A stretch of DNA of 64,000 nt from Ginglymostoma cirratum (lineage: Eukaryota), in the NCBI GenBank assembly GCA_024137785.1, contig JAHRHZ010000050.1, forward strand, positions 17,087,874 through 17,151,873, given 5' to 3'. Both the position numbers and the translations under genes were made by a program. The notes beneath the pieces are model-generated. The model worked only from the letters and a program-made list of their open reading frames with translations. It was not told where the DNA came from and searched no databases. Positions 1 through 60,770 of the stretch are shown one piece after another (the first letter of the stretch is position 1; each line of letters opens with the position of its first letter).

Positions 1-1686
1 TCACTGTCTGTTTCTTCCCTTTTGTTTCATTTTGGTTATGGCCCTCTGTCTCACTGTGTTATTTAACTCTCTTTCTTCCCACTTCCTTTTGTGTATCCAT
101 CTGTCAACCTCAGCCTCACACAGATTGCGACATGTGCAGAGTTCCACCATCTATTCTTTACTCTTGTCAGGATTCACTTACAATATCTCAGGTCTGATAC
201 AGTTGATTGTCCCTAGATTAAAATGGTACTTTCTGTGTTTGCTGAAAACATTTTTCTTTAATGAAACTGTTTAAAAAGCTCATTTAAATCTGTTTTCCTG
301 AAGTACACAATTCCATTATTTCAGTTTGTTATTGTAGCAATGTGCTAATAAAAATATATCTTTTCTGCAAAACTGCACTTAACTGCTGTTTACATGTCAG
401 TGGTAAATCAATTATATAAGTGCACTTTTATGCAATAATAACACCTGGCTACAGCTACCACAGATGTTTACCATTACAATCATCCAAGCCTGATCAGTTG
501 AAAAACTATATCTTTCACAAGACTGAATTTAGCTGTTAAATAGATTCTAACCAAACTTGCATGTCTTTGTGATTGACAGTTAAATTAACCACAAGCCCCT
601 GCAAAGTTTGGTTTAACAGAAACAGCTGAATTTGAAGCAGCTCCAAATTGAACCTATTTAATTGTATTTTTGCTTTCTCTTAACTGATTCTAATGTCATA
701 TCTTCCGTAATAACTTAGTGCATTGTAAATATGACAACTGCTATTTTCTTGCAATTACACAAAGTTTTGAATGTGCTGTGGATTTTATGATCTTTCACTT
801 CACACAGAAAATAGATCTTTCTCAGTTATATGAATGCATGATATACTTGGTCCAGTGCACACACAACACTAAGTGTAACAGATGCCAAACCTAACACATA
901 CTCTGACCTCAGCAGATGGTGGTGCAGGGACACCAATGATCCAGAACTAATATCATGTGCCATGTCACATTGTTTAAAGCAGACGGTGGAGTCCCTGTAA
1001 TTTCCTATTACAATAGCTCAATACTGTACTTGCAAACTCATCAAATTGAGCACTTTAATTGTTTACTGAAATGTTAACTAGACAGGTTCCAAAGATACTC
1101 CTTGAGAGGACAATGTTCATCCACTGCATACTTCACAATGCAAAATATTTTGATAAAGTCTAATTTATTTGTGGGTGAATTTAGAAGCAAAATGCTTCTG
1201 AAATACATTTTTATGTTTGTATTTTATTTCATCACAGTCACTGACTACAATACTTAATTAAGCAAACTCAGCAGTCAATTCACAACACTTCTGAACTTCA
1301 CTGTTCTGGAATATAAATTTACTATATGTTTACCAAAAAATTATTCTTGCAACATTTCTTCTACAGTTGCACTATCACCAGGACAATGTAGGGTGGGAAT
1401 GTAGAGTGCAGCAAAATATCAATGCAAATCATTTGACTCAGCTATTCATTATTACAGGATTTCATAACATATTCCAGGGGCCTAATACCTACTTTAGTTG
1501 TCAACCATAGAAAATACGTCCACACATTCAGCAATAAAACTGATGCCTGTATGGATCAGTAGTTTGCTGTCACATTGCGACGTGTACGTATTTTGTGCCC
1601 ATTTCTAGATTGAAACGTAGCTGCAGCAAATACCAATTTCTACCTCCATTTCTCTGTTGCATTTTGAGCGCATTTCAATTAACCAA

Positions 1687-1735
1687 TACTAACAATGTTC
1701 ATTGTTTGTGGTTTCCTGTTTTGTAGCAGGTAAGT
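1687..1735 (+). other. Splice-signal stack: branch point TACTAAC, U-rich tract, TAG/CAG acceptor, GTAAGT donor
   Basis: tactaac(1687-1693)...gtttcctgttttgtag|cag|gtaagt (AG 1725-1726, CAG 1727-1729, GT 1730). Confidence 0.5.
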
Positions 1736-2224
1736 TGAAAATAAACAATTTTTTTGCAGAAAATCAGCTTTTCTTTTTGTACATACAGTTTTGCAATGAA
1801 AATTGTTAATTGGATGGGTTTGTTTTTCACCTATACAATTCAGCAAGCCAGTTCCAGGTTTTAAAATTATTCACAAAATTGGTGCATATTTAAAAGCATT
1901 AACAAATGATTTATATTGATATCTTTGGGATAAAAACATATTTCCTGCAAGGATGTTAAGAACAATTTTATGCATATTAATGCTTATTTTACACATACTA
2001 AATATATTGGGCAAAATCCTACAGGGGCCTGAGCGATGTGGACTATGGCAAGTTTTGTGGCAGAGCTGCATTAGAAGTCTGTCGAGATTTATACATCAAA
2101 CAAAACTCACTGCATCTTTTATGCATTTGCCAAGTGGTGAGTTGTTCCTATCACTTGAGGCATGTCACTTTCATTTGCCAATCACTTTAAGTCTGCGCCC
2201 ATGAAAATGGAAACCTGGAAGAAA

Positions 2225-2445
2225 GAGCTGGCCCTAATGGTGACCATGTATCCATTGTTGAGAGCTGTAAAAGCCCATTTTAATTTGCTAATGCAAAGGA
2301 AGGAAATCTTCCATTCTTACCTGTTCTGACTGACATGTGACTCCAAACCCACAGCAATATGGTTGACTCTTAATTGCCTGCTGGGAAATTAGGGGTGGGG
2401 GCTAAACGCTGACCTAGCCAGCAATGCTCGAATCCATCAGATAAT
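2225..2445 (+). mobile_element. 5'-truncated copy of bipartite tRNA-headed SINE (LINE-derived body and tail)
   Basis: Aligns by eye to the 15429-15715 and 38351-38670 copies (aaggaaatct..cttacc..catgtgactccaaacccacagcaat..gggaaattaggg..ctagccagcaatgc). Confidence 0.75.
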
Positions 2446-4179
2446 TTTTAAAGAAGTGTTGTTCGGGTTGGGTAGGTGTGGCAATCAAGAAAATGGAGTT
2501 AACGCCACAATTTGGTCAGCCATTGTGTTATTGGATAGCAGAGCAGATTTGGGGAGCTAAATGGCCTACTCCTGTTCCAATTTCTTTTGAATGTAATGTC
2601 CCACTATCATCTATCACCACCTGCCAGTCATCACCTTCCACGCTCTTCGGTCACCCTCACTGTTCCCTTCATCACCCTCAATTGCCTATCAATCACCCTC
2701 CACTCTCCCCCACACATTCAACATTGATCCTCCCCCATCATCCCTGCTCTGCTCAGGATGACTCTTAACTCTTTCTCAAGTACCCTTGATCTCCCCTCAA
2801 TCAAAATTGAGCTGCCCTTGGTTCAACCTCTTTCTCTGTCTCTCTGTTTCTGTCTCTCTCTCTCTCTCTGTTTCCCACCACCCACCCCTGCCTTACGTCA
2901 GTCAACACCCTCTGACAGAATACCAAGCCCCACATACATGAAGCTGCAGAACTTCCACTCCCCTGTTCCAGCATCACTCCCTGCAAACAGACTGGGTTTG
3001 TTGCCTTGTGCCCTTTTTGAGTCAATGGTTCCTTTTAAGAATTGGTATAATGTTAACTAATTTATAATTCATGGCAATGCTAGAGTGGCAGAGAGAGTTC
3101 AAGAATATTGGACACACCTCCATTAAGTCTGATTGTGAATTCCAATTCAAGATCAAATGCATAGAAAAACTGTGACAAGAGCCATTATGGCAGATAGGTG
3201 CCCATCCTCCAGTAGTTGAGCATGCATTTATTATCTTATTCCAGGATCAAACTAAAAGTAGCACCTGGCTGCCGAATAAAGAGAACACAAAACTCTCCTC
3301 ATGCACTTCATGTCTGGGCATGGTTGAGAAAACTTACCCGAAAACATCTTGATGGTGTGCAGCGTTAAAGATCCCTTCAGTCAGTGTCACAGCAGATTTA
3401 CACTGGACATGATATCTTACACTGGATTGAGGACATGATCAAGTAATTTGCTTTGCATGGATACTTCTGCAGGGATGCACAATTCATGAGAAAGTCGATG
3501 CACTGGTACCTTAAGCATTAGCGGTGACGAGATAGACTTTGTTGTTGAAGAATTCAGTTCAGATTTAGTGATGTCCAGAACCTGTATAATGATAATTTTA
3601 AATAAACTAATATCAGTTAATGATGACAAGCAATATATTTCAATTATAGAGTCTAGACGTTCAAATTAAAAATACTGAGAAAGCATCCAAAATATCAGAG
3701 ACTGGGCAGGAGCCAGAACAGCTAGAAGCCAGACTGTCCCATATCTGAATTGTTACCCTGGGCCAGGTGAAGTTCTAATGATTTTATAAAGACACAAGAA
3801 AGATTGTGACCAATATCCCGGTCACTTGTAGGATTCCATCCAGAGACAGTATCCTGTTGTCTTACCCCTTCTATTAGTGGTTACCTTCATAGAAATTCTA
3901 TTTCTTTTAGTACTTCCTCTGTTCCTACCTGCCTCAGAAAAAGAAATGGCTTGGGAAATTTCCAACTGTGTGCTCCATGAGAACAGTCTTCCAGATTTTT
4001 TATTCCTTTATGATTTGACCTTTGGGATCTTTCAAAGCCCACACATTTATGAACCAGCTTGTTCATATTGCTGGATATTTGATTTGTCTCAATAGTTCCC
4101 TAAGTTCTAACTTAATGTGAGGTTTTTAACTTTTACTGAAGAGATAACAGAAGTTAATGTCCAATTTTGAAGTCTTGGA

Positions 4180-6699: not shown

Positions 6700-7835
6700 T
6701 AATGCAGTTGTAAAAAGCTGGGGGTGTACATGCATTGATCCCTGAAGCCAGCAGGGCATGCTGAGACAGTAATGAACGAACTGGGATTTTGGTCTTAAGA
6801 AAATAGAGATAATGAGTACAAAGCAGGGATGTTATGCTGAAACTTTACATCTCTGGTTATGCCTGAACTAGTGTGTTGTACCTAATTCTGTCATTATTCT
6901 TTAAGAAAATCATGCAAGGATCCATGAGAAGATACGGTTAGGGTTAGAGAAGATGTTTGAGAAGATGCAGGAATGGTTGCAGAGATGGGTTCTTCCTTTA
7001 GCAACAAGATTCAGCTGGAGAAGTTGTTGTTGTCCTTGGAGCAGAGGAGACTGAAGGGAGATTTGACAGAGGTATACGATATTTTGGCAGATTTGTATTA
7101 GGTAGACAAGGAAACATGGTTCCCATTCAGTGATAATACAAGGACAAGACTAGACAGATATGAAGTTCTGAACAATTGATTCAGAAGTTACGTGAGGCCT
7201 TTTTCTAAAACAGTAACTGGCATCAAACTAGAACTTGCTACCCATGAGGGTGGTGGAAAGTAGGACAGTCAATGATTTCGAAAGGAGTACTGTGAGTAAT
7301 TTGGTCTCCTTATTTAAGGAAAGATATCATTTTATTGTAGGCAGTTCAGGGAAAGTTCAGGAGGAATATCCCAAGTAAGTAGGGATCGTCCTATGAGCAA
7401 AGACTAAACAGATGGGACTCTACTCATTGGACTTCAGAAGAATGAGAGGTAAACTTATTGAAACATGAGAGATTCTTGAGGTGCTTGACAGGATAAACGT
7501 TGAGAAGATGTTCCCCCTCAATAGACAGGCTAGGACCGAAGGGCATAATCTCAGAATTAAGAGATGGCAATTTAAGACTGAGATAAGGAGGAATTTCTTC
7601 TCTCAGAGGGTTATAAGTCTTTGGAATGCCTAGTCACAGATAGCTGTGCAGGCAGAGTCCTTGTGCATACTTAAGGCTGAGATAGATAGCTTCTTGATCA
7701 GTAGGGGAATCAAGATTTATGGTAAAATGCAGGTAAGTGAATGTGAGGAATAGCACATCAACCATGATTCTATTGAATGGTGGAGCAGGATTGAGGGGTC
7801 AAATAGCCTATTCCTGTTCCTATGTCTTGTGGTCT
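6700..7835 (+). mobile_element. Two adjacent decayed CR1-like LINE 3' fragments
   Basis: CR1 3' motifs (aggaatttcttctctcagagggtt, ttgaatggtggagcagg..gaggggtcaaatagcctattcctgttcct). Confidence 0.75.
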
Positions 7836-7881
7836 TGAGAGCATTTGACTTTACTGGGTTAGCTCAAATACTTTCTATTGC

Positions 7882-8116
7882 TAGATATTTTCTAATCAAT
7901 GCATTCAGAGATGTTATTACACATCACTGGAGAAGGTGGGACTTGAACCTGGGCCTCCTGGCTCAGAGGTAAAGGACACTACCACAACAGGCGTTATGCA
8001 GGTGTGTAGTTATTTTTAATCAACTTGTTCCAATATGTTATGGCACATCTCTGAAGCAGGGAGATGGAACCAGGATCTTCTGGATGAGAGGCAGAGACTC
8101 TACCACTACACCACAA
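7882..8116 (-). mobile_element. Tandem pair of ~115-bp tRNA-derived mini-SINEs
   Basis: The reverse complement matches + strand copies at 24770, 27488, 45628 and 62587 (A-box/B-box-like head, tail taacatctctgaac..gattagaaaatatct). Confidence 0.75.
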
Positions 8117-10040: not shown

Positions 10041-10239
10041 CCATAATGTTACTGCTCTCACTATTTAATAATCTCTACCACTGTATCATATGTTCATTAT
10101 TTACTTTTCTCACTGTCTTGGACATTCATTTCTGCCATGTACAGTATTTCTCATTTCTTTTCATACTCTGTTCTCATTTTTACTACTTCTGTTTATTGCA
10201 ATCTCTCTTATTTATGATTTCTCTTTTTCTCTACCAGTG

Positions 10240-11930
10240 TTGTAACTGGAAGAGCTTGGCTAGGGGATTGGCAAGTTCTGGAGCACAAATCTTCAGTCCT
10301 TTACTGGAATGCTAACAGGGCCCATAGCCTTTGCAGTATTCAATACCTCCAATCATTTATGAAGACTGGCATCTGTGATGTTGGGGATTCTGGAGGAGGT
10401 CATGTTGGATCATCAAGTCGGCACTTCTGGCTGAAAATTGTTGCAAATGCTTCAGCCTTATCCTGTGCACGAATTTATTGGGCACCCCCATCATCAAGGA
10501 TGAGGCTATTTTTGGAGGGTCCTCCTTCAGTGAGTTGTTTTATTAGCCACCGTCATTCATGACTGGATGCAACAGTACTGCAGATCTTAGATCTGATTCA
10601 TTGGATGTGGAATAGTTTAACTTTATCGGTCATTTGTGCATATGTTATTTGACATGCAATTTGTCCTGTTTTGTAGCTTCACCATGTTGACACCTCATTC
10701 TTAAGTATGCCTGGTGCTGATCCAGCATGCTCTCCTCTACTCTTCACTGAACAAGGGTTGATCTCCTGGCTAGAATGGGTGATATACTGAGTAATGAGGT
10801 TGCAGATTGTGTTGGAGTACAATTCTGCTGGTGCTGATGGTCACACCGCCTCATGGATGCTCACTGAGTTGCTAGATCTGTTCAATGTCCATCCCATTTA
10901 GCACAGTTATAATGCCACACAGCATAATGAGATATTCTCAATGTGAATACGTGACTCCATCTTGACAAGAACCATGCAGTGATCACTCTTACTGTCACGG
11001 ACAGTTGCATCTGCAACAGGAGGACTGGTGTGGATGAGATCACATATGAATTTTCCTCTTGTTGCCTCCCTCACCATCTTCTGCAGACCCAGTTTACTAG
11101 CTTTAGGACTCAACCAGCTCAGTTAGTAGTGCTGCTGCCAAGCCACTCTTGGTTGTGAATGTTAAAATTCAATCTGCACCCTTACCACCTTTAGTGCTTC
11201 CTCCAACATGAAGAAACACTGATACGCTTATCGAGGGAGAATGATATGTGACAATCGTTTCCCTTGCCCACGTTAAATCCAGTGCCATGAGACTTCATGG
11301 GGTCTAGAGTCAATGTCAAGGACTCCCAGGGCAACTCCCTCTCAACTGTAACTTACTGTGCTGCCACTTGTCCTGCCAGTGAGACAGGCCATATCCAGGG
11401 ATGGTGATGGTGGTGTCTGGGACATTGTATGGTTGATTATGTATGACTATGTCAGGCTGTTGCTTGATTAATCTGTTAGAGAACTCTCCGTGTTTTGGCA
11501 CTAGTCCCCAGATTTTAGTAAGGAGGACTTTACGGGTCAACAGCATTGTTTTTGCTGTTGTCATTTCTGGTGCCTAGTTCGATACCAGATGGTCTGCCTG
11601 ATTTCATTTCTTTTTGACAGTCTTTAGCAATTGTTACAACAGAGTGGCTTGTTTAGACATTTCAGATGGCAGTTATGAGTCAACCATTATAGTTCTGGAG
11701 TCACATGCAGTCCAGACCACGTAGGAACAGCATTTTCCTTTCCTGAAGGACATTTGCAAACCAAATGGGTTTTTCTGACAATTGACAATACTTTCATGGT
11801 CATCAATAGATTTTTATTTCAGATTTTTATTGAATTCAAATTCCTTGATTGCTATGGCAGAAATTGAACCCGGGTTCCCAGAATGTTAGCTGGATCTCTG
11901 AATTAATAGTCTAGCGATAATACCACAAGG
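10240..11930 (-). mobile_element. 5' part of an APE-RT LINE with a tRNA-like 5' head (head ~11640-11930; APE N-terminus ~11316-11564)
   Basis: The - strand begins ccttgtggtattatcgctagactattaattcagag...ccgggttcaatttc (same as the SINE head at 15429/38351) and runs into LLTKIWGLVPKHGEFSNRLIKQQPDIVI..VPDTTITIPGY and later SDHCMVLV (APE motifs). Confidence 0.8.
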
Positions 11931-12359
11931 TCCAAGTGCTGGCAACTTAGCGTTATCTCTAACTGGCAATGTAGTGGCACAGCAGCCCAAAGCTACACTG
12001 CTCAAGGGCATATAGTGGGCATGGCTGACACTCTCTCGCAAATACAATTGCATTCTTTCACACTATTCACTGTTTCATCATCAGGTCACACTGTCATTAG
12101 CTACATCCCATCTAAATACTATTTCTAGGTCACCACTACCCTGTCCCTAATGCCCACACGACACATACAGTTTGTCATTGTCCAGGAGGGGAACATCACA
12201 TACAGTCAGGCCAGAAAATTCCAAACAAGATCTTTTATTACAGCCACCAAAGGCAAACACAAAAACAAAATAAAGCCTGCAAGACGCCTCCACATGCAAG
12301 TCAAAAGCTGGAACCTTAACCATCAGCAATTTTACATTCCATTCATTGGTCAAAACATT

Positions 12360-15410: not shown

Positions 15411-15428
15411 TGCCAACTATTTAGGCAA

Positions 15429-15715
15429 GGCAATGGCTTTGTGGTTATTATTGCTAGACTATTATTCCAGAGACCCAGATGATGTTTCTTGGGGTCTGGG
15501 GTTCAAATCCCACCATGGCAGGTGGAGAATTTTAATTCAGAGAAAAAAATTGGAATTAAGAACCTAATGATGACCGTTACGCCACTGTTAGATTGTCGTG
15601 AAAACCCATCTGATTCACCAAGGTCCTTAGGGAAGGAAACTGCTATTCTTACCCAGTTCGGCCTACATGTGACTCCAAACCCACAGGAACGTGGTCGACC
15701 GTTATTTGTCCTCTG
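15429..15715 (+). mobile_element. tRNA-headed SINE immediately upstream of the RBPJ promoter
   Basis: ggcaatggctttgtggttattattgctagact (A-box-like)...ggggttcaaatccc (B-box)...aaacccatctgattcac..ggaaggaaactgc..cctacatgtgactccaaacccacagg. Confidence 0.8.
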
Positions 15716-15754
15716 GGAAATTCTCTCTTTCTCTTTCTCACCCTCACTGCCTCA

Positions 15755-17365: not shown

Positions 17366-17501
17366 GGAGGTATTAGGAACTGCAGATGCTGGAGAATCTG
17401 AGATAACAAGGTGTAGAGCTGGATGAACAAAGCAGGCCAAGCAGCATCAGAGGAGCAGGAAGGCTGACGTTTCGGGCCTAGACCCTTCTTCAGAAAAAAA
17501 A
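17366..17501. mobile_element. Short Penelope-derived insertion, 11-bp TSD gttctgaaatt (17355-17365/17502-17512), intact hammerhead-like core on the - strand
   Basis: TSD seen directly. - strand 17493-17466 = CTGAAGA A GGGTCTAGGCCC GAAAC GTC. Confidence 0.8.
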
Positions 17502-18799
17502 GTTCTGAAATTATCACTTATTGTAAAGTTAAGAATTAATTCTCAGGGTGAGTGTTATGGGGGAGGGGCAGAATTTATTGCTGATTCCCAAATGCCCTGA
17601 AGATGATTAAAGTCAGCACATTTCCTGCCCTTGGGGTATAATCAATCATTTGGGCTTTTCTGACAACCATACAGTTCAATGGCAACTTCTATTGGAAACA
17701 CTTTTTTTTATTTCCAGGTTTGTAAAACTAATTTCCAAAGATCAAACTGCTGTGGTGGGATTTGAACTCTCATTTCCTTTGAGTAATTAGTTCAGTGGTA
17801 TAATCACTAAAATATGTAGCACCACTATGGAAATTGAATCAGCCTTCCATACTTCAGAATGATGAACAGTAGTCAGGTGCTGCGAAGGGGATGCTGTAAC
17901 TTGTGTTGTGTATTCTAGAATCTGATATTATTGTGCAGTAGTTGCATTTTGCTGCTGAGTTTTCTCTACACTCGAGTGTTTTAAACATGTTATTATGAGG
18001 TCACCTTTTCCTGCAGCAAAGCTCACCTTGAAGATAACCTGTGTCTCATGATTCAAGCTTAAATCTCCATTGAGAAAATGGATAAACTTTTCCAAAAAAC
18101 TAAACTCAGGACTGAAAATTTGTGGCAGAGTTATTTTAACTAGTTTTGCTATTTCTGTTATCTGAAATGGCTCTTATTCTGTGCATCCTACTTATTTCAG
18201 GTATTCTATAAATGGATTTATTCACGACTAGTTCAGGATAAATAAACGTATGGGAAAAAATGTTCTGTGATACTGTGACACAGTGCCAGTTAAGTAGGCT
18301 GCTTTGCCTGGAGTGGAACTGAGTTGTGTTGTTAGGTTATAGATTGCTTCACTATCTGAGGAGTTGCATATGATGCTGAACAGCACACAATTATCAGTGA
18401 ACATCCCCATTTGTGAATGTGTATTGTAGGGAAGGCAGTTGTTGAAGCAGATAAAATCTGGGTGGGCTGCTTTTTGGAGAGGCGGTGTGGACTTGTTGGG
18501 CCGAAGGGCCTTTTTCCACACTGTAGGGATTCTATGAAATAAAGATGACTGGCCTAGGACGCTCATGTAGAGTACTCATGTTGATGTCTTGTGACTATGA
18601 TGATAGACCTACAACAATCATGGTTGTCTTCCTTTGTGCTAGATATGACTCCAACCAGCAAAAGAGTTTCACCTCCTGATTTGCACTGTCTTCAAATTGC
18701 AAGGGCTCCTTGTTGCTGTAATCTATGTAATGGTGTCTTACGTGCTGTTAATACATGACAATTATTAACTTCATCTTAAGTGAAAGGCGTTGATGTAGA

Positions 18800-19515: not shown

Positions 19516-20045
19516 TCTGCCACGCCTTATTCACAAATACTACAGGTGTCTTTGACATGCACTCGTGAATTGACTCTTGCGACATTATTTTTAACTATGC
19601 ATTTAATTAGCATTCAAATAATTTTGACACAATTATTTTTGAGCATCTAGATTAGATTTTTCAATATTGGATTCATAAAATGCTAAGGTTCCTGAGACTG
19701 TGCTGCTGGTGGTAACCTCTGTTAATTTACTGTGTTGAGTTTGTTGGCTGGAAGATCTAAGAAGGTGGCTTTCTGTAGTAGATGAGTTGGGAAATTTTGT
19801 TCAATGGGTTAATTTAGTTAGGCCAGAATCTTGTTAGATAAGAAAACATCTGTTTCAAAAATCTTGGTATTAGTGTGTTATCATGGTAACGCAGTGCGTA
19901 GGACTTTTAATTTACTGCTGTGAAGAATTAGTAAAAACAGCTTTGACAAAAGGGGAGAATTCTCTTTGCGGAGTAATTTTTTCTTGTGCCTTGAGTTTGA
20001 TTGGCACCATAGTCTAAAACTGAAGGTATGCTACATTGTGAGAAG

Positions 20046-20218
20046 AGATAGCAAGAACTGCAGAGGCTGAAGTTGGAGACAACATAGTGTGGAGCTGGAG
20101 GAACACAGCAGGCCAGGCAGAATCAGAGGAGTAGGAAAGTTGACGTTTCAGGTCCTGACCCAAAACGTCAACTTTCCTGCTTCTCTGCTGCCTGGTCTGC
20201 TACGTTCCTCCAGATCCC
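20046..20218. mobile_element. Hairpin Penelope-derived insertion, 12-bp TSD cattgtgagaag (20034-20045/20219-20230)
   Basis: Inverted arms (ggaggaacacagcaggccaggcag..aggaaagttgacgttt / aaacgtcaactttcctgc..ctgcctggtctgc..gttcctccag) plus an exact TSD. Confidence 0.85.
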
Positions 20219-20379: not shown

Positions 20380-22650
20380 TTTGTTAATCATTCACTGAAT
20401 GTGAACTAACATTGAGGCCTGCATTTATTACTTTTCCGTGGTTGCGTTTGAGAATTGCTGGTGAGCTGCATTCTTAAACCGCTGTGGTTCATTTGGTGCA
20501 GGTATATCTGCAGTGCTATTAGGGAGTTGCAAGATTTTGATCCAGTGAAAGTGAAGCAACAGCATGGCTTGGAGGGGAACTTGCAAGTGATGACATTCCC
20601 ATGTATCTAGTGCCCTTGATTTCCTAGATATTAATGATTGTGGGTTCGGAAGGTGTGCCGAAGAAGCTTTGGTAAATTTCTGCCGTGCATCTTGGGGATG
20701 ACAATCACTGCTACCACAGTGTTTGTTAGTGAAGGGACTGACTGCTCGAGGATGTGATGTTAGTTAAGCAGACTGCCTTGTCCTGATGATATCAAGCTTC
20801 TTGGATGTCGTTGGAGCTGCACGCATCGAGGCAAATGGGGGATATTCCACCACTGTAGATTTTGGAGAGGCTTTGCAGATTAGATGGAGATTTACTCACT
20901 GTAGGACTCCTAATCTCTGAACTCTTGTAGCTGCTCATCTAGTGGTAATTCACAAGGAGTTGATAGTGGAGAGAAATTCAATAATGCTAGTGCCATTGAA
21001 TGTCAAGGGGCAAAGGTTAGATTCTCTCTTCCTGGACATGATCATTGCTGGCATGTGTGCTGCGAATGTTACTTGTCAGCTTAAGCCTGAATGTTGTTTA
21101 GGTCTTGCTATGTGTGTGTGGAATGTGTTAATATCTAAGAAGTCATGAATTGTGCTCAACCTTGTGTAAACATCAGCAAACATCCCCACTTCTTACCTTT
21201 GTGGAGGGAAGGTCATTGAAGCAACTGAAGATGGTTAGATCTAGGTCACTAACAGAAGGAACTCTGTAATGATGTACTGGAGCTGAAATGACTGACCTTC
21301 AAAAACCTTGACTGTTCTACTTTCAACTAGATTTGAATCCACCAGTTTTCTTACTGGTTCCTGTTGACCCTCATTTTGCTAAGATACCTTGACCTGGCAC
21401 TTGGTCCAATTATATCAGACAGTCACTCTCATCTCCCCTTTTGGAATTCACCTTTTTTTTTTGGTCCAAACATGGCTACAATGCTGAAATGAAGTAAGGA
21501 GCTAAATTGCTTTGGCAGAATTCAAACTCGGCATCAGTTATTGCTGTGCAAGCATCCTTGATAAACTGATGACTCCCATCGCTTTGCTGGTAGTCGAGGC
21601 TAGCGGGATAAATTTGTCCTGCTTTTTGTGTACAAGTCATACCTGGGCAATTTTCCACATGTCAGGTAGATGCAAGTGTTATAGATTTACTGGTTCATCT
21701 TAGCGAGGGGTGTGGCATGTCTGGAGCATGTCTTGAGTGTTATGTTGGAATGTTGCCAGGGTCTGTGGTCTTTGTGGCATCCAATGCCTTCAGTCATTTC
21801 TTGTATCACATGGGGTGATTTAAATTGGCTGAACACTGGCATCTGTGATGCAGGAGACCTCTGGAGGAGACCAAGGTAAATTTGTTAACTTTGCACTCCT
21901 GGCTGATGAATGTTGCAGCCTTGTCTTTTGCACTGATGTCTAGGAATTTCCCATTATGGCTAATGGGGTATTTGAGAGTTGTTTCCTCAGAGTTGTTTAA
22001 TTGTCCGCCACCGTTCGCCACTGGAAGTGATAGGATGCAGAGTTTAATTCTGATGATTGTAGAATCTCTCAACCTTGTCACCTGCTTTCTATGCTCTTTG
22101 GCAAGTGATGAAGGGTTTAGGCCCGAAACGTCAAGTTTTCCTGCTCCTATGATGCTGCTTGACCTGCTGTGTTCATCCAGCCCCATGCTTGTTATCTCGT
22201 AGTCCTGTGTTGTAGCTTTACCAAGTTCGCATCTAATTGGTGCTTCTGGTGTTGCTCCTGGCGCGCACACTAGCGCACTCAGTGACCTTGGGTTGAACCC
22301 TGGCTTGATGCTCATTGTAGAGTAATGGATATGTCGGGTTATATAGTTGCAGATAGTGTTAGACAACAATTCTGCTGATGGTGGCCCACAGCACCTTGTG
22401 AATGCCCAGTCTTGAGTTTCTAGATCTGTCACATTTAGCACTGTTGTACTGCCAGGCAAAGTTATGGAGGTTACCCTTAATGTGAAGATGGGACTTTATC
22501 TAAATATGGATTTTGCAGTGGTCAGTCTTATTGATACTGTCAGAGACAAATGCCTCTGTGACAGACATATAGTTGGGGCTGGGATCATGTATGCTTTTCC
22601 TCTTGGCTCATTCATCACCTGCTGCAGACTTGGCTGACCAGTAATGTCCT
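20380..22650 (-). mobile_element. Middle-to-3' part of the tRNA-headed LINE family (3' tail at ~20385-20480), with a nested Penelope end at ~22105-22198
   Basis: 21700-22630 aligns with 10240-11100, and 20385-21300 aligns with 26540-27480. Confidence 0.75.
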
Positions 22651-22869
22651 TTTTGTTTGTTGCCACTTAAGTATGAAATATGTAAGAATGTTTACATAAG
22701 GCAGACTGGAAATCTGGACCACTTTTCCTCAGATTGGAGATTATGGCTCAGTTGAAATCTTAAAGACCTAAGTATCTATTTATCTAGAATTGGAGTTTGT
22801 TTACAAAATGTGACGTAATATAGCCTTGAAACTATTGGAAGCATCTGAGGGGTAGAATTAATTTGCACT

Positions 22870-24345
22870 TGGACGGATTAATTTTGTTAAGAGGGGGTAA
22901 CTGCTGATCAAATTGATTGGTTAGTTCTTCAAAAAATTCAATACATTTGACACAGTTTACTTGGACTTCAGCACTTTTGATAAAGTCCTGCGTGGAAGAT
23001 TAATAGCAAAGTTAAGAGCCTATTTAATCCAAGGAAATTTGGCAAATCAGATACAATATTGGCTGAGTGGCAAGAAGCAGAAGGTAATGGTCAAGGGTTT
23101 TTTTGTGACTGCCTTGTCCAGAGGAACTTGACAAGATCAGCGCTGGGGCCCTTGCTGTTTGTGGTACATGTATAAATGATTTATTCTTGAATATAAGATT
23201 GATCTGTAAATTCATGGATGGTACAAAAATTGGAGGGGTGATAAATAGTGAGAAGCATAGCCTTAAATTAGAGGAGCTTATGGACTGGCTGATCAGAAGC
23301 GAATGAAATTCAAGCCGGATATGTGGGAGGTGATGCACTTGGAAAAGACAAACAAAGCAAGGGAATACAGGATGAAAAGTAGCACTTGACAAACCACTGA
23401 GGTTGAGAGAGACCTTGCTATACATGTCCCCCGGTCGCTTAACGTAACAGGACAGGTAGAAGTGGTTAAGACATGTGGTATACTCCTCTTTATTAGTTGA
23501 GGCATAGAGTTTAAGAGGAGTGTGATGATGTTGGAACTGTGTAAAACTTTGTTTCGGCCACTGGCTAAAGTATTGTGTGTAGTTCTGAATTAGGACTGAA
23601 TTGAGAAGGAACTTCTTCACCTAAAGGGTTGTTAATCTACGGAATTCCTTGCCCAGTGAAGTAGTTGACGCTACTTCAGTAAACATTTTTAAAGCTAAGG
23701 TAGATTTTTTTTTGAACAATAAAGGAATTAAGGGATACGGTGAGAGCGCAGGTAAGTGGATCTGAGTCCACAAAAAGATCAGCCAAGATCTTATTGAATG
23801 GTGGAGCAGGCTTGAAGGGCTGGACGGCCTACTCCTGCTCCTAGTTCTTATGTTCTGGAAGTAGCATTATAGGACGGATGTGATTGCACTGGAGAAGGTG
23901 AAGAGGACTTTTCTAGGATTTTGCCAGGGCTGTAGTTATGAGTTTTAGTTATGTGGCGAGATTGGATAGACAGGGGTTGCTTTCCTGAGAGCAAAGGAGA
24001 CTGAGGGGGAAACATGATTGTGACATATAAAATTATGAGGAGCATAGATGGTAGATGGGAAGAAATTTTTTCTCTTGGTGGAGGGGTCAATGTCTAAGGG
24101 GCAGGAGGTTTAAAGGGGATGTGAGGAAAACTTTTTCGCCCAGAGTCTGGTGGGAATCTAGAACTAACTGCCTGTTAAGGTGGTAGTGACAGAAACCCTC
24201 ATAACATTGAAAACGTATTTCAGTGTACACTTGGCATACAAGACTATGGGCCGAGTGCTGGAAAATGGAATTAGAATAGATGTTTTTCATCGGCAAAGAG
24301 TCGATGGGCTAAAGGATCTTTTATTGCGCTATAGAGCTCTATAAC
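22870..24345 (+). mobile_element. CR1-like LINE (RT to 3' end) with a nested second CR1 3' end at ~23590-23855
   Basis: tacttggacttcagc..tttgataaagtcc (YLDF..FDKV), aagcagaaggtaatgg, aaattcatggatggtac. Two separate 3' tails are present. Confidence 0.8.
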
Positions 24346-26539
24346 GCTAAGTCTTCTATTACTCTGCCATGCAGTCTTTTTCTAGAACTGGCTCCAACCA
24401 TCAAACTGCTTGCTAAAACTAAATGAAGCTCTCCTGTGCACCACAGTGTATCAAAAAGTAAAGAATAAACAAGCTGTAGTTGTATAGGGAGTGGTACATC
24501 TCCAGTTAATGACACTGCTAAACCACAACAGCAAATTTTGTCTTGCTTACTTAATGTGCCTTTTTAGTGCAGAACTCCAGCTGGCTTTAAATCTGTATTA
24601 TATTTATTACTTTAACCCATTGTTGTAAAGTTAATGGCAGTTTTGACCAGTTTTAAAGGTCCACAATTTAATCCAATTTAGATTTATGTGCTAATTTCTA
24701 GAGGTTTGTTTTATCCAACGAAGAACTCTTGAGCTCATTAAGTGATATTTTTGAAGAAGGGAAGACCCAGGTGCTCTTGTAATACAGTAGTTGCCCTGTC
24801 TTGGAGTCAGGAGGCCTGGGTTCAAGTCCCACCTGCTCCAAAAGTGTGTAGTAACATCTCTGAACAGGTTGGTTGGAAAATTTTTTAAACAAAAAGGAAG
24901 ACCTTGTCAGATGGCAATTAGAAATGCTAACTAGGTGACTACTCTTTCATTGATATTTTAAATGACCTGGTTGACGCAAATCTGGGAGGTGGGCAACACA
25001 GGATTTGAGCCACATTATATGCTGTTGGAGTGGAAAAAGTTTTGGAATCACGCTAATTAGTACTCCTTATTCAAATGATTGTAGAGTCACATTTAATCAG
25101 TTATTTGTTCTGGGAATTGACTTTAAAGAGTTCTAAATTCTGACTGTCTCAAGAACTGAATTTTAGATGAATAGATTTTGAGTTTTCCGTGGACGCTTCC
25201 CTTGCAGCATTGTACTCCATATTGCTTGAACTTATTTTAAAATTGCAGTGACACTTTGCTAGATTTTATTGCTCCTACAACTTAGATGAAAAGCAGAGTT
25301 TTCAAGTTTGATTTGCTCCCTGTTGGGTCCTTATTTATCTGCTAACATAGTGTTTAATAGGTGAATACATCAGACCTTGACCCTGTGGAAATACCAAAAA
25401 TCCTTTCAGAGGAACTATTGTCTGCATGACTAATTGAAATAATCATTTTCCAGACATGTGCAAGAAAGAAAACCCAATCAGTGACACTTAACTGTGTTCT
25501 AGATCAAGGTGTGGGATGACCTATTGAATGACTTGAGTCACCATTCTCAGCAGTCGCACTGAAATCATCAGAATTATGTTTAACTATTAGGAGAAAGACC
25601 TGGAAGCTGTGATGAGCGTGGTACCTGCTAAATTCAACATTGTATTCCAGAATGGTGAAAGAGCTTTGCATTGGTTGATTTTAAATCTTAAAAACATTAA
25701 ATGTATTTACCTTTGTGGAGATGTTTCGTACATGGAGTAGTTGTTGCCATATCTATGGCTACTTCTACTAGCCAATGCTGTTATAGTGACATTTGTTTAA
25801 TTAGATCCATGACTTGGGACAGGCTAGCGAGTTGAATTTATTCCATATTCATGTGGAAAAAGTAAAGATTGTTATATATTGCAGATGTGACTAGGGTTCA
25901 GTAATAGCTAAAATAACATCAGCTTTCAGCATTAAATTTGAGTACCTGAATGAAGATAATGTTGCTTTATCTTAAAGGTGTTCTAGACTTCAGAAATTCA
26001 TTACATGATTGACAAATTTGTCAGGTTTCTGTAAGGAGATCTATTCCATCTCGAAGTAGTGATTTGAGATAAAACTTGCAAATAGAAATAATTCAACTGA
26101 AGTTTAGGAAGCTGCATACGCGTTGTGTGTCATTGCTGGACATTAAGGAGAAACAAAGGACCTTGCCTCAGGTATTCATGTTGTACCCTCCCATCTCTAA
26201 TCTTCCAAATTAAACCTTAAACAAATAGTCAACCTCGCTTGTTTTTAACTTGAATTGATTCTGAGTGTTATTGTTCAATTTTGTGAGATTGCACACAAGG
26301 GAGCTTAGGAACTGAATGAACTAAAAAAAATGGTAAATTACCTGAGATTAAATTTCATTGCACAAATTAAGCTTATAAATGAAGAAAAATCTTCATCAAA
26401 CAGATAATGTTGGCAGAGCAGATTCTAAATTCATACTTAATATTTTCTTGCTGTGATGAAACTGACAACAAATGATAAAACTGTTAGCACATGGTGAGTT
26501 AGGTTGAATCAGCTCCTCCTTTTTCAGTTTTCTTGTTGG

Positions 26540-27740
26540 CATATTTTATTCGCCTGTGGGATGGATGTGGGCATTGCTGGCTGGCCAACATTTGCTTCCT
26601 GTCCTAAATTGCACTTGAGCAGCTGGTGGTGAGCTGCTTTCTTGAACTGCTGAAGTCCATATGCTGGAGGTGGGTTCACAATGCCCTTGGGGAGGGAATC
26701 CAGCATTTTGACTCCAACAGTGAAAGAACAATGATATTTTTCTAAGTCAGAATGGTGAGTAGCTTGGATGTGAACTTGCAGATGGTGTTCACTTGTATCC
26801 GCTGCCCATGTCCTTCCAGATGAAAGTGGTCATGGCTGTGGAACGTCCCAAAGATTTTTGGTGAATTTCTGCAGAGCATCTTGTCGATAGATCATACACG
26901 CTGTTGCTACTGAGTGGTGGTGGAGGTGATGGATGTGGTGCCAATCAAGTGGACTGCTTTATTTTGAAAACTGTTAAGCTTCTTGTGTATTGATGGAGCT
27001 GCACTCAACCAGGCATGTGGGGAATATTCCACCACACTGCTGACTTCTGTTTTGTAGATGGTGGACAGGCTTTGGGGAGTCAGGTGAGTATTCATAGCCT
27101 CCTACCTCATTGTAATCAATGTATTTATGTGGCGAGTCTCGTTGAGTTTCTGGTCAGTGATACACCCCAGGATGAGAGTGGGCGATTCAGTGATGGTGAT
27201 GCTATTAAATAGCAAGAGGTGCTGGTTATTATTGTCTTTTAGTAGAGATGGTTATTGCCTGGCATTTGTGTGGCGCAGTTGTTACTTATTACTCTTGAGC
27301 CCAAGCTTGGATATTGTCCACATCTTGTTGCATTTGAACTTGGACTGCTTTAGTATCTAAGGAGTCATGATTAGTGTTGAACATTGGACAATCAATGAAC
27401 ATCCCCACTTTTGACCTGATGGAGGGAAGGTCATTGAAGAAGTAGCTGAAAATGGTTGGACCTAGGACATTACCCCAAGCAACTACAGGGCTGTTGTGGC
27501 ACGATTGTCTTGTCACTACCTCTGAACCAGGAGGTCTAGGTTCAAGTCTCATCTGCTCCAGAAATGTGTAATCACATCTCTGAATATGGTTGATCGGAAA
27601 ATATCTTGCCTGAAGAAATTGTCAGAGATAGGAAGATGGTTGTGGTTGCTGGAAATCAGTCTATGTGCCAGGTATGATTGCAACCAGCAGAGATTTTGCC
27701 CTCCTGATTCCCGTTTTGTGACGGTTTCTTCTTGGCACGC
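26540..27740 (-). mobile_element. RT and 3' end of the tRNA-headed LINE family, with a nested + strand mini-SINE (27488-27606)
   Basis: ORF 27289-27552(-) reads GNVLGPTIFSYFFNDLPSIRSKVGMF. The - strand 3' tail is gttcaagaaagcagctcaccacc..gcaattt..atgttggccagccagcaatgcccacatcc. Confidence 0.8.
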
Positions 27741-36870: not shown

Positions 36871-38350
36871 CAATGTTTCTTGCTTTGTAACCAGGGAATA
36901 GTCTTAGCTAAGATTATATTCCAGAAATTGGAAAATAAAAGGCTGGTGTACTGACGTTGAGCTAAGGCTGATCTTTGTCCTCTTTGCTGTTTGCCTGTAA
37001 ATGCAATTAAGTCTTTATTATTTAATTTTTTAAAAATACGCTGACTTTCAAATAACTTAGTCATCTATTATCCCTGATTTCCATTTTCTCTGTGAATGAA
37101 AGATTGTTGCCCTGAAATGTTAACTGTTCTACTTCCACAGATACTGACTGACCTCATGACTGTTTCCAGTATTTTCGACTTTAAATTCAGGTTTCCAGCA
37201 TCTGCAGTATTTTGCTTTTTTCCTCTTTCCCTACTTCTGTGACTGTTTCTAACACTGTGTGCTCCTTCTGCTAGGTGCTCACGGTAGGCCTGGAACTAAA
37301 TGTATATGAACTGACTTTTTCAGAGATTTAAGTTCAGTATATTGATAAATTAATGTTGGATCCAGTTTCATCCTTTGCAGCTTTATTTTGTTAGTCCCCC
37401 CGCTGAATTTAGCGGGAAGGTGAAGGACAGGAAGAAAACAAAACCAAAGATCATGTCTGCACGACCTATTGGATGTGCACATAGTACGGCTTGAGATATG
37501 AAGAGCAGGTTTTAATCAGGAAAAACTCCTGCCTAGTTGGGAAATGAAATTGTTGAATTGGCACACCACATTTCTGTAAATCTGCAGCTATTATGAAGCA
37601 ATATTTCATGCTGGGTTGGATCTATGAGGAATTTTCTAAGCTTAATTCTGAAATATTGTGTTTAGAATGTTCCATCCCATTGACTTCACAGCTATATAAC
37701 TGAGACTTCAAAATCATTAAGCAGGATTATGAGCTTAGTAGGTTTTCTTGGTTCCAGATCTCAGCTTACCAACAGGGAGCACTAACTTTGTTATGTTGTG
37801 CAAAAACTGTTCTTAAACTTTAATAGCTGCATTGCATTTGCTATAACAGTAGCATTAGCTGAGGACCGAATGAGATAATGTGGTTTAATCTTAGTACTAG
37901 GTAGCGTCCTGGTCAAACAGATTGGAGAACTTAGTTGTGTGTAGGTACATTCTAGAGTAAACGTATTGTACATTTCAACTGATCAGATTAAAGTTATAGA
38001 CTTGCATAGGAACGCTGAAGGACAGTGTGAAAGTATTTCTTGTACTTAATGCTTCAAGGCTATTTGTGGCAATTCTGTTATTGATAACTACGTAAACAAG
38101 CTTACTTTGTTCCCTCCAGAGGCAGCACACTAACCAAAATAAATACTTTCCATTTTTTGACATCTGAAGGCAGTGCTGTCCTGACAAGGAGGTAAACAGA
38201 ATCAATTCAGCATACCTATACTGGTCAGGAAAAAGATTTAAACACTGTGCTGTAAGAGACCGATCTATTGACAAAGGCAAATCAGAATGGCAGCTTGAAA
38301 CCAGCTGTGCATGAGAAAGCAAGTAGTTGCAGTAAGTGTACTCTGAACGG

Positions 38351-38670
38351 GAGGCAATGGCCTGGTGGTATTATCCCTAGACTGTTAATCCAGAGACCCA
38401 CAATTTTCTGGAGACTCTGATTCGAATCCCACCATTGGGTGATGGTGGAATGTCAATTCAATAAAAATCTGGAATTAAAGTTAAAATTAAGATGACTATG
38501 AATATATTGTCAATTAATGGAAAAACGCATCCGGTTCATAAATGTCCTTTAGGAAAGGAAGCTACTATCCTTACCTGCTCTGGCCTAGATATGACTCTTC
38601 AACTGCCCTCTGGGCAATTAGGGATGGACAGTAAATGCTTCCTTGATAGTGAATCTTGTCCTGTGAATAC
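38351..38670 (+). mobile_element. Full-length-looking bipartite tRNA-headed SINE
   Basis: gaggcaatggcctggtggtattatccctagact..gattcgaatccc..aactgccctct|gggcaattagggatgg..aaatgc. Confidence 0.8.
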
Positions 38671-43570: not shown

Positions 43571-44214
43571 AGAGATAACAAGGTGTAGAGCTGGATGAAC
43601 ACAGCAGGCCAGGCGGCATCCGAGGAGCAGGAAGGCTGACTTTTCAGGCCTAGACCCTTCAGAAAAGAATAGAGCTCCCTCACCCCAATCCCAGGCCCCA
43701 AGAAGACTTTCCACATCAGGCAGAGGTTCACCTGCCAATGTGGTATANNNNNNNNNNNNNNNNNNNNNNNNNNNNNNNNNNNNNNNNNNNNNNNNNNNNN
43801 NNNNNNNNNNNNNNNNNNNNNNNNNNNNNNNNNNNNNNNNNNNNNNNNNNNNNNNNNNNNNNNNNNNNNNNNNNNNNNNNNNNNNNNNNNNNNNNNNNNN
43901 NNNNNNNNNNNNNNNNNNNNNNNNNNNNNNNNNNNNNNNNNNNNNNNNNNNNNNNNNNNNNNNNNNNNNNNNNNNNNNNNNNNNNNNNNNNNNNNNNNNN
44001 NNNNNNNNNNNNNNNNNNNNNNNNNNNNNNNNNNNNNNNNNNNNNNNNNNNNNNNNNNNNNNNNNNNNNNNNNNNNNNNNNNNNNNNNNNNNNNNNNNNN
44101 NNNNNNNNNNNNNNNNNNNNNNNNNNNNNNNNNNNNNNNNNNNNNNNCAAGTTTTCCTGCTCCTATGATGCTGCTTGACCTGCTGTGTTCATCCAGCCCC
44201 GTGCTTGTTATCTC
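43571..44214 (+). mobile_element. Penelope insertion with inverted ends and 12-bp TSD aatagaaggaag (43559-43570/44215-44226), spanning an assembly gap
   Basis: Ends gagataacaag../..cttgttatctc. Internal PGPKKTFHIRQRFTC resembles the sequence just before a Penelope GIY-YIG domain. Confidence 0.85.
43748..44147. other. Assembly gap (400 N)
   Basis: Run of N. Confidence 1.
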
Positions 44215-51304: not shown

Positions 51305-52019
51305 TGAGTTGCTTAGGAACTGAATGTGTGGTACGTTTTTTTGTGATTGTGCTTGCCATTTGTCCAGAAAGGAAAGATAGAGCTTGCATTTATATTGTCT
51401 TCTAATGCTTTGGAGTTGTTGTAAACTACTTTGCGATTACTGTTTTGCTTTACACGTACAGCTACTTGTCAATAAACAACTGTTATACAACCCCTAGCAA
51501 ACTACAGATGGCTCATTGACAAAATGATCTCTTTTGTAGTAATTGTGTTTCTGGATAGCAGTGTTTTATCAAATAGTGCCATGCTTAGTTCTGTTTATGA
51601 AATACTGCTGCTGCTATTTAGCATGCATAAAGTCTTGTGTTGTAATTTCACCAGATTGACACCTCACTTTTCAGTATGCTTGTTGGTTGTCCTTGCATAC
51701 TTGCCTGCAATCATTGAAATGCATTTGGTAGTCTACTTTGGTTATTAGGTGAGGCATACATTTGGCCATGAATTTACAGATTGTGGTTGGAAACAATGCT
51801 GACATTGATAGTCCACAATACTTCGTTTTCTCAATTTTGAGCTGCTGTAACTGTTCTGAAACCTTCCTATGTAGTGTGTTAATGCTACCTGATACAATGG
51901 ATATTGCCTTCACTGTGAAAACAGGACCTTGTCTCCACTCTGCGTTGTTTTCCCCCTGCCAATACCGTCATTGATGTATCTGTGACACGTGAGGGCAAGA
52001 TGAAATAAGATTTTCTGTT

Positions 52020-52625
52020 TTTGTTGCTTCACTCACCACCTGCAATAGTTCTAGTCTGGCAGAAATATCCTTTTTTACTCAGCTGTTTCAGTCAGTAGTG
52101 ATGCTCTGAGCCACTCTTGTGGTGGGCAGTAAAGTTCCTAATCCAGAGTGTATTCTTTGTTCTTGTCCCTTCCAGTAGTGTTCAAATGGAATGTTGATTT
52201 GTCAGCCAAGAAAGGTTGCAAGGTTATAATTAGTCAGACATTTCTTTAGGCATGTTTCACCTGATGTCATGAGGTCCAGAGCCAGTGTTGTTGACTCCAA
52301 GGGCTCAAGATCCCGTATGTGAGTGAACAGGATTTTGTAAGGTTGATTGGGCTGATTGTGCGCCTTGTAATATTTGGTGTCTAAACTGTGCAGTTTATAC
52401 TCAAACTCTTATCCCGTCCCAGTGAAAACTGTCTGTGGTGGGTCTCTATTGCTGGTGGGACAGGGCAAACCTCATAGATGGTGATGGAGTGTGGGACATG
52501 CTGCAGGATATGATCTTGTGACGTGATGAGCTCTTGTTCAAATAGTCTTTGGATAATTCTCAATTTTGGTGCAAGTTGTCAGATTTAAGTGAATAAGGTT
52601 TTGCAGGATCAATTAGGCTGATTGT
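52020..52625 (-). mobile_element. Decayed APE-region fragment of the tRNA-headed LINE family
   Basis: Aligns with 11050-11540 (ctcaccacctgc..agccactcttg..catgaggtccagag..atggtgatggagtgtgggaca). Confidence 0.6.
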
Positions 52626-53245
52626 GCTTTCATGTGTACTGCCTATGTCATTGCAGCATATATTCAAACTTGTGCAAAGTAGTATAGCAGTAATGGATAT
52701 ATGAGCCAATATACGTGGAATTCAGTGCACAGCTAGGTACCAGCAATGTTACCATGCTGTTGTTGAAGCTCTGCCCTTCAACTACTACGTAGCATATTTG
52801 TAGTGAGCTAGCCTTCCTTGGCACTGTGTCATTTCCAGATATATGTTGCTTCTTGCACTCATACACTGATTCTTTAATGTTTAGTTTTGTAGATCTTACA
52901 CTTAGCTCAAGATTTTTCCCACCTTCTTAGAATAGTATAACCCTGTGGTTTTAAATGGAATGATATGAGATTTTCAGGCAGTAGAATGCTTAATCATGCC
53001 TCCCTGTTAACCAATTCAAGTTAATTCCTGAAGTACAATTAAGCACATTTTCAGATTAAAATTCCTAGCAATCTGCTCTGAAATGTGTAAATTTAAAGAG
53101 GTTGGATCCCTGCAGGTCATTGATTTGTGTAGTTATTATGTTCAAAAACTTGTAGTTTGACAAGTTTGTGTTTGTGTCACAAATTGGCAGCTGATCATTT
53201 GACCATTAAGTTTTATTCTAAATTAGGTACGAACATACAAATTAG

Positions 53246-55011: not shown

Positions 55012-55195
55012 GAGATAGTAGGAGCTGCAGATGCTGGAGAATCTGAGATAGCAAGGTGTAGAGCTGGATGAACACAGCAGGCTGACGTTTCGGGCCTAGA
55101 CCCTTTTGAAGGGTCGAGGCCTGAAATGTCAGCCTTCCTGCTCCTCTGATGCTGCTTGGCCTGCTGTGTTCATCCAGCTCTAGACCTTGCTACAC
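55012..55195. mobile_element. Hairpin Penelope-derived insertion (imperfect TSD ctggataagcttgg/ctggataacgctgg)
   Basis: Arms tagcaaggtgtagagctggatgaacacagcagg / cctgctgtgttcatccagctctagaccttgcta. Confidence 0.8.
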
Positions 55196-56262: not shown

Positions 56263-56279
56263 GCCTGTAAAAGCATTTA

Positions 56280-59569: not shown

Positions 59570-60770
59570 GCAGCTGCAGGGTCTGGTGACTTCAGAACAA
59601 GGCACCTCTCTTCTGAGGGAACTAATAAGAAGAGAAGAATATAGTTGACTGACAGCATCTATCCGTGATGGCTTAGGTAGGAGTGATCACTGTGCAGCCC
59701 TTGTGGAGACGAAGTCCTGTCTTCCCATTGAAGTTACCCATAATCATGTTGAGTGACACTATATAGTTGTGTTTGGGGTCGGTCTATTCAGTCAGACATC
59801 CCTGCAGGAATTCCTAAGGGTAGTGTCCTAGGTCCGACTATCCTCAGTGATTTTTGTCAATGACATTCCCTCCATCAGAAGGTCAAAGCTGAACTGCTCA
59901 TTGACCAGTGTTTCGTGCCATTTACACCAACTCAATGATGGAAGTAGTTCATGTCCATGTGCAGCAAGACTTGAGCAATCTGACTTTAGTTTTTAAAGAC
60001 AAATGAAATTTGTGCCATACAAGTGCCTTTAAATGATCATCTTCAGCAAGAGAGGATTTCATCATCTTCGCATGACATTAAATGGCACTACCATTAGTGA
60101 TCCGTCATTCGCAACATGTTGGAATTTACTATTAACAAGAAACGTAACTGGACTATTCATGTCGATACTATGGCTACATTGGCAAGTTTAGAATCTGGGA
60201 TTTGTGTGGCAAGTAACTTATTTTGACTCTTCAAATCCTGCCCACTATCAGCAAGACAGACATTGCGAGTATGAAAGAATATGCTGCATTTGCTGGGATG
60301 CATGCAGCTGCAGTAAGTCTCAAGAAGCTCAATTCCACATAAGATAAAGTGTTCCATTTGATTGGCACCCCATCCATCTTGCACATTAATTCCTATTGCC
60401 ACTCTCGCACATGACACAAACAATTGCCATATGCAAGCTAGCATCACAGCAACTTGCCAAGGTTTTTTCAACAGCACCTTCTATATCCGTGACCTATACT
60501 ACCTAAAAGGACAAGGACGGAAGATGCATGGGAACATTATCTTCAAGCTCCTTTTCAAACTATTCACCATCCTAACTTGGAAAAATTTTGCCGTTCCTTC
60601 ACTGTCGCTGTGTCAAAATCCCAGAACTCCTTTCATTACAGCACTGTTTTGTACCAATGCAGGATGCACCACAGATGTTCTGGAAAGTGGCTCATTACTA
60701 GCTTCTTGGGGGAAATTTGAGAATAGCAGGAAATGCTGGCCTAGCCAGTGGCACTTGCATATTAAAGAGG
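59570..60770 (+). mobile_element. Internally deleted copy of the tRNA-headed LINE family (APE end, RT, 3' tail)
   Basis: ggagtgatcactgtgcagcccttgtggagacgaagtcc (SDH region), cctaagggtagtgtcctaggtccgact (PxGSVLGPT), tail aaatgctggcctagccagtggcac. Confidence 0.75.

Follow-up and report, generated by a model that had tools for sequence, protein, structure and literature searches.

The elasmobranch Zenon LINE has a 5' end derived from tRNA-Ser, and its source copies were likely transcribed by Pol III and likely translated without a cap and without a normal AUG; a probability of about 0.6 is given to this reading. The observations were made on a stretch of 64,000 nucleotides from the nurse shark Ginglymostoma cirratum (called the window below), part of a host genome of 4.36 Gb. 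Its minus strand holds, at 11934-10232, a decayed and 3'-truncated copy of a single-ORF LINE of the CR1 group, about 3.29 kb in full length. By its sequence it belongs to the elasmobranch Zenon LINE and is no longer active.

The LINE copy and related pieces in the window

At 75% identity to the majority sequence of the family, the window copy is old; it has neither a tail nor a TSD. Positions 11930-10232 correspond to element bases 14-1848, so that the copy stops inside the RT region. Its tRNA-Ser-like head lies at 11846..11934 (minus strand; element ~11-92), with a degraded A box, TGGACCTTGTGG, at 11934-11923 and a B box at 11871-11860. The coordinates named in an earlier note on this DNA all check, including aactgccatctg at 11674-11663 (minus strand). 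The string quoted there as A-box-like, however, is not the A box; the real A box, TGGCCTAGTGG (element 11-21), sits just before it. The head (11930-11696) aligns with the plus-strand SINEs at 15429 and 38351 (72-73%; E 1e-24 and 2e-29). The SINE at 2225 has no tRNA part.

A non-coding conserved body common to the LINE and the SINEs follows at 11635..11845 (minus strand). The SINE form designated SINE-A departs at 11663 in this body, and the form designated SINE-B would depart near 11638. The leader (11532..11634, minus strand) consists of an A-rich spacer of variable length with an out-of-frame ATG near 11607, and also holds a basic in-frame extension without an AUG. The LINE copy does run on past the SINE junction into an endonuclease, as had been noticed, although its start, KVLLTKIWGLVPK, stands at 11531, about 130 bp on rather than ~100. 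The broken APE endonuclease, the linker and the start of the RT occupy 10232..11531 (minus strand).

Other pieces of the family are scattered over the window. An older 5'-truncated copy with a tail (20416..22652, minus strand; element 905-3252) consists of two parts, 22652-22199 and 22054-20416, interrupted by a short repeat at 22198-22106. Another 5'-truncated copy holds the RT C-terminus and tail (26563..27715, minus strand; element 2195-3272), and within it 27484-26563 corresponds to element 2306-3272. Old fragments were found in the endonuclease region (51583..52627, minus strand; element 401-1428) and, with an internal gap, at 59655..60748 (plus strand; element 1008-1115 and 2292-3258, the latter at 59795-60748). 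A further RT fragment, absent from the earlier note, lies at 18339..18716 (minus strand; element 2165-2456). The overlapping pieces tile the family majority, as the earlier note proposed, although the copy on which it centred ends at 10232 without a tail of its own.

Several other features were also recorded. A high-copy repeat of ~100 bp occurs at 17366-17500, 20045-20161, 22106-22198, 43572-43669, 44148-44215 and 55012-55192; the copy at 22198-22106 is the one that sits inside the LINE, and by eye the repeat resembles the primers of nurse shark NSRE1 (PMC1513397). Direct repeats of 127 bp (93%) and 45 bp (exact) lie close together around a 10-base N gap at 56036-57091, and a run of 400 N lies at 43748-44147. 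Further repeat families are present at 7572-7985, 23590-23859, 24804-24881, 27484-27609, 45622-45744 and 62587-62708, one of them inserted in a LINE copy at about 27484-27628.

Structure and reading frame of the LINE family

The majority sequence, built from 17 copies, is 3,292 nt long. An A box at 11, a B box at 74 and a non-coding body reaching to about 322 are followed by a variable spacer, the endonuclease from 426, a stop at 3228 and a short A-rich tail. The 5' end is fixed ten bases ahead of an intact A box, and the B box lies 63 bases beyond the A box. Copies end ...GAATAGAAAAAAA, a tail of the poly-A type that is short in these old copies.

APE and RT are encoded in a single ORF, with Pfam Exo_endo_phos_2 and RVT_1 found on two natural copies. 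The majority frame has 977 codons and one stop, located at a CpG site where 8 of the 17 copies read TGA and 6 read CGA. The absence of a visible ORF1, reported earlier for the window, extends to the majority: only 425 bases precede the start of the APE, and no frame of 60 codons is found in them. The nearest named protein comes from Branchiostoma belcheri (42%). The family makes up much of the genome: among 400,000 sampled bases, it covers about 8% of the 161,006 that were readable (overlaps unmerged), and most of the 8 head matches in the sample are SINE-like.

Purifying selection was detected among 47 copies. The N/S ratio is 1.27 at shared changes (those in four or more of the copies) and 3.67 at single-copy changes (p 3e-10), against 3.38 and 3.63 in a shifted-frame control; the lower ratio at shared changes implies that the source copies needed their protein. 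No in-frame AUG precedes codon 171 of the majority, where the first Met stands, and at any of the first 62 codon columns ATG is found in at most 1 of the 17 copies. Selection on the in-frame leader is non-significant (p 0.45). In six of seven published heads, compared by eye over the portion shown, an out-of-frame ATG occurs at 349; its 35-codon frame was considered as coding and rejected (N/S 4.5 vs 4.5, few sites).

The head-endonuclease junction

The junction between head and endonuclease is the 5' end of the LINE family itself. With a query across the junction, 40 of 4,196 candidates were scored; 39 of these matches are non-self, and all 39 span it. Twenty loci were fetched, picked for long alignments from 29 non-self loci; 17 of them carry head and tail in one piece of ~3.2 kb, with a common 5' end. 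Because the junction query itself contained the head, a head-blind search was run with endonuclease DNA as the only query, giving 30 loci (one self and two re-finds included). Every one of the 30 extends upstream into this head or leader; 21 reach the 5' end and 9 break off within bases 128-365. No common alternative flank was visible in these 9 when 30 bases of flank were compared by eye. In 5 of the 9 (L082, L083, L084, L096, L100) the truncation falls close to base 180 or to bases 250-254 of the head, so that these points form clusters.

The head is not confined to the young copies, for an older LINE subfamily also bears it (8 with a long head among 19 pattern matches). In contigs of one public run, unrelated flanking sequence takes over at this very 5' base (787 contigs, agreement 0.34), and the head starts all seven elasmobranch Zenon consensus sequences in the portion shown in PMC13343379. 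The junction is thus not peculiar to this locus, no full-length copy with a different 5'UTR or an ORF1 was present in the 30 head-blind loci, and the proposal of a single-ORF LINE with a tRNA-derived head at its family-wide 5' end stands on the junction, head-blind and published-consensus evidence together. A longer two-ORF parent, such as a canonical CR1 or L2 with an esterase-type ORF1, was rejected, as the same 30 loci, with 30 bases of flank judged by eye, show no other 5' end.

The tRNA-derived head

When the head of the LINE majority was scored against 27 distinct host tRNAs, a set in which some isotypes are missing, the best match was tRNA-Ser(GCT) (z 9.1; next isotype 4.8). The SINE head gave the same best match (z 8.4), and the SINE majority has both A and B boxes. 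ARAGORN called no tRNA anywhere in the window, the head included, and Rfam called none in the head of one copy. In genomic copies the A and B boxes are kept at 0.88 and 0.86, compared with 0.85 for the intervening sequence; this is expected for dead copies, yet it lends no support to Pol III.

Folding of head, body, leader and tail gave no z below -1.6. The body folds like its shuffles (z -0.5), so no IRES-like structure is established. The exact body motif is absent from GTDB contigs, a 16-base motif matched 19 viral contigs that have no further likeness, none of 80 metagenome loci matched head or tail, and the body motifs led to no named SINE in the paper text and four supplements searched.

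Scarcity of T runs and the mode of transcription

TTTT is a stop signal for Pol III, and TVTTT a less efficient one (PMC8466645, excerpt). The earlier note had suggested a check for internal terminators, and neither of these two occurs on the sense strand of the 3,292-nt majority. In the ORF, TTT was observed 3 times against 12.3 +/- 2.7 in synonymous permutations (0/1000), while runs of A, C and G are at expected levels. For TTTT alone the difference is non-significant (0 vs 1.8 expected with codon usage fixed, P 0.11).

The control was an ORF2 of a CR1 family in this genome, constructed likewise from 30 loci; it contains 12 TTTT and 5 TVTTT in 2,664 nt. A canonical fragment of this younger family, whose copies are 88-92% alike, lies in the window at 30946-31644 (minus strand). 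A second control consisted of 39 related ORFs, namely those of the 80 metagenome loci with an open frame of at least 800 codons. All 39 have at least 4 TTTT and none has an upstream pair of A and B boxes, by a pattern that recovers the heads of the shark family as positive control. These ORFs are distant (25-37% identity) and T-richer than the LINE (23-36% vs 20%); the five with 23-25% T have 4-11 TTTT each. The LINE ORF contains 1.7% Phe, compared with 2.1-6.5% in 87 long homologues.

The tRNA-derived head, taken together with the lack of Pol III stop signals, suggests that the LINE is likely transcribed by Pol III. Transcription would start at base 1 of the head, proceed through 3.3 kb and end only where the flanking DNA offers its first T-run, and such a long reading may be possible because terminators have been selected away. 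Against this, Pol III is described as weakly processive, and SINEs are 100-700 bp in length (PMC10886601). Translation of this RNA may then begin in an IRES-like manner or at a non-AUG codon, much as has been proposed for R2, and the protein would use the A-rich tail as the starting point for copying the RNA that encodes it.

The strongest competing explanation is that Pol II transcribes the LINE, from an internal promoter in the body or by read-through from the host. The head would then be a passenger or an RNA-structure element serving as promoter for the SINEs only, and the scarcity of T runs would have another cause. Published accounts assign the transcription of non-LTR retrotransposons to Pol II (PMC10886601; PMC5786205, excerpt), and in Lepidoptera both Zenon and its deletion derivative Persaeus function with no Pol III promoter, according to the excerpt of PMC6740152. 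The body (about 186-320) is also more constant between lineages than the tRNA part, and the TTTT test when taken singly agrees with this explanation. Pol II transcription, however, leaves unexplained a fourfold depletion of TTT that is confined to T, as well as the fixed 5' end just ahead of the A box and the missing in-frame AUG. We consider it unlikely, and Pol III transcription from the head remains the preferred reading.

SINE partners and the direction of origin

Two forms of SINE accompany the LINE. Form A consists of LINE bases 1-295 joined to 3221-3292, a tail of ~72 bases, and form B of bases 1-320 joined to 3217. The SINE-A majority is about 360 bp long and is 91% identical to LINE 1-295 and 86% to 3221-3292. 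All 29 non-self loci found in a SINE search are composed of head and tail and are non-coding. The form B junction gave 26 exact matches against 0 in the reversed control, and SINE-B is the older form, its copies averaging 82% to their own majority compared with 91% for SINE-A. Public contigs show both junctions as loose ends, the A junction in all 4 runs and the B junction in at least one. Neither form contains a base that is absent from the LINE, which favours an origin by deletion.

In the window, SINE-A copies are found on the plus strand at 15428..15722, where the tail is lost to a simple repeat ~8 bases beyond the junction, and at 38349..38643; a 5'-truncated SINE with the A junction and older-type head letters lies at 2211..2435 (plus strand). 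The junctions reported earlier, 2382/2383 and 38611/38612, are correct, and the 15429 copy is joined alike at 15714/15715. In the 38351 SINE, a stretch of about 27 bases that would separate two GACTC repeats is missing immediately upstream of the junction (38598-38600). In the random sample, some head-tail junctions are shorter than A or intermediate between A and B (L307 9293-9475; L315 6649-6924/9964-10000; L304 8686-8766), and these may be further deletion forms or products of decay. The SINE tail begins 7 bases before the LINE stop codon (element 3221-3230; window 38612-38621), and its SINE-specific letter falls in the last sense codon of the LINE.

The idea that the SINE is a derivative of the two LINE ends was borne out in so far as only the first 295 or 320 and the last ~72 bases of the LINE are present. 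A simple excision from the LINE in its present form does not account for the SINE, because both SINE tails read AATTAG, as none of 30 LINE tails does, while the heads follow changes in the LINE. In a tree of heads (rows used 17/17, 25/29, 5/25 and 8/19), SINE-A groups with the young LINE and the window copy (100/98), and 16 head columns against 1 favour SINE-A with the young LINE; an AU test on the heads did not reject a clade of SINE-A and SINE-B (p 0.113). The tails, in contrast, group the two SINE forms together. Older head letters occur in 3 of 30 copies with the A junction, including the 2225 copy in the window. These three copies and the shared tail letter make a fresh origin of SINE-A from the young LINE less likely.

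A single old lineage of SINEs, with heads exchanged between it and the LINE, appears to fit these data best. The lineage would have begun as an internal deletion of an ancestral LINE, form A arising by a further loss of 29 bases, and the SINEs would then have swapped heads with the LINE through the common 5' block. With both boxes present in a deletion derivative, such an element would be SIDE-like in its working and would be filed as SINE2. The expectation that one TSD would bracket head and tail was not borne out, as no TSD of at least 8 bases was found in 15 LINE or 27 SINE copies; shorter ones are indistinguishable from chance.

The reverse direction has also to be weighed. A classical SINE of form B, composed of tRNA, body and Zenon tail, may have come first, and the LINE may have captured its first 320 bases; this concerns the origin only and is compatible with the use of Pol III. 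The age of SINE-B and the tail letter common to both SINEs agree with this direction, as does the resemblance by eye of the SINE-B head letters to the Squalus consensus over the part shown. Hagfish and coelacanth Zenon, moreover, start differently in the 400 bases shown, which implies that the head was gained from somewhere, and bivalves commonly have ordinary HCD SINEs that end in a Zenon tail (PMC11481361). Capture, however, would need to have hit the exact boundary of body and tail, leaving no SINE-only base and no remnant of the tail in the LINE, a result that deletion gives automatically, and Zenon is known to yield 5'+3' deletion derivatives repeatedly (PMC6740152, excerpt). Capture of a SINE head by the LINE is therefore regarded as rather unlikely, and deletion from the LINE as about three times as likely.

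The weakest alternative, a SINE that landed by chance beside a 5'-truncated LINE at this locus only, would suit the age of the window copy and its lack of tail and TSD, but is ruled out, with practically no probability left to it, by the recurrence of the junction throughout the family, in 39/39 matches, 17/20 loci, the loci of the head-blind search and the consensus sequences in PMC13343379.

Published Zenon elements and other known systems

The suspicion that the family was already catalogued proved right, in that the LINE corresponds to the elasmobranch Zenon of Stuart et al. 2026 (PMC13343379), to the extent of the sequences shown there. RhiTyp_Zenon-1 has 3,293 nt and the LINE majority 3,292, and about a dozen letters differ by eye in the first 400 bases, the portion compared. 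The consensus sequences from CarCar, ScyCan and HypSab and three from SquAca start with the same head as the LINE majority over the part shown, whereas the hagfish and coelacanth elements have another start. For the stingray family, 3 of 612 ORF2 are listed as intact. Zenon is defined in the main text of that paper by the lack of ORF1 and a poly-A tail, and both the published elasmobranch elements and the shark LINE are without ORF1 and have an A-rich tail. The same main text contains no tRNA, promoter or polymerase III, and SINE appears once, in a reference; the tRNA head, the avoidance of T runs, the missing AUG and the SINE partners are thus undescribed in it.

One element that resembles the shark SINE is Persaeus of lepidopteran Zenon, described in the excerpt of PMC6740152 as a short, internally deleted and very successful element of 260-390 bp. 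Like the shark SINE, it is a non-autonomous 5'+3' derivative of a single-ORF Zenon. Persaeus, however, has a variable central region and neither tRNA homology nor a Pol III promoter, while in the shark the derivative is a complete SINE2 that contains no additional sequence. Bov-tA, AfroSINE and SINE2-1_EC (Kojima 2018; PMC5786205, excerpt) are likewise bipartite and hold 5' and 3' parts of their LINE, but in these the tRNA head was added to an RTE or Vingi derivative, whereas in the shark an autonomous LINE of the CR1 group bears the head itself. A precedent for a LINE with tRNA-like sequence matching many SINE2 is given in the same excerpt by RTE-1_DAn and relatives; RTE-1_DAn belongs to the RTE clade, and the place and function of its tRNA-like part are not given there.

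R2 and L1Tc, non-LTR elements with a single ORF, offer a precedent for the translation of uncapped RNA, for which an IRES-like 5' structure has been proposed (PMC6765202, excerpt). According to the same excerpt, an HDV-like ribozyme releases them from a Pol I transcript or from a polycistronic one, while the shark head matched no Rfam family. SacSINE1, CmiSINE and the MetaSINEs (PMC5499810 and PMC4824008, excerpts) resemble the shark SINE in being tRNA-headed and in their occurrence in cartilaginous fishes or their conserved bodies, but are described with Deu, CORE or Meta bodies and with L2 or other tails; the body motifs of the shark SINE gave no match in the searchable supplements on them. 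The nurse shark repeats NSRE1 and NSRE2 were considered as the shark SINE and rejected, being different repeats by their primers (PMC1513397). A literature search, with subscription journals, Repbase, Dfam and SINEBase outside its scope, found no account of a Pol III-driven LINE or of the shark SINE.

Implications

LINEs are commonly viewed as Pol II units and SINEs as Pol III units, and the usual products of Pol III are short RNAs that do not code for protein. A LINE whose coding RNA of 3 kb is made from a tRNA promoter would, if true, break this split. The fullest form of the idea, in which an autonomous coding LINE would run on Pol III with an uncapped 3.3-kb RNA purged of T runs and AUG-free translation, would have been kept across sharks and rays and would have given rise through one deletion to a SINE that trades heads with it, is put at even odds. 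It would offer a natural case of a Pol III messenger RNA with translation independent of cap and AUG, and a one-step route from LINE to SINE. Should the use of Pol III fail, an undescribed SINE of sharks and an unnoticed feature of a published LINE remain.
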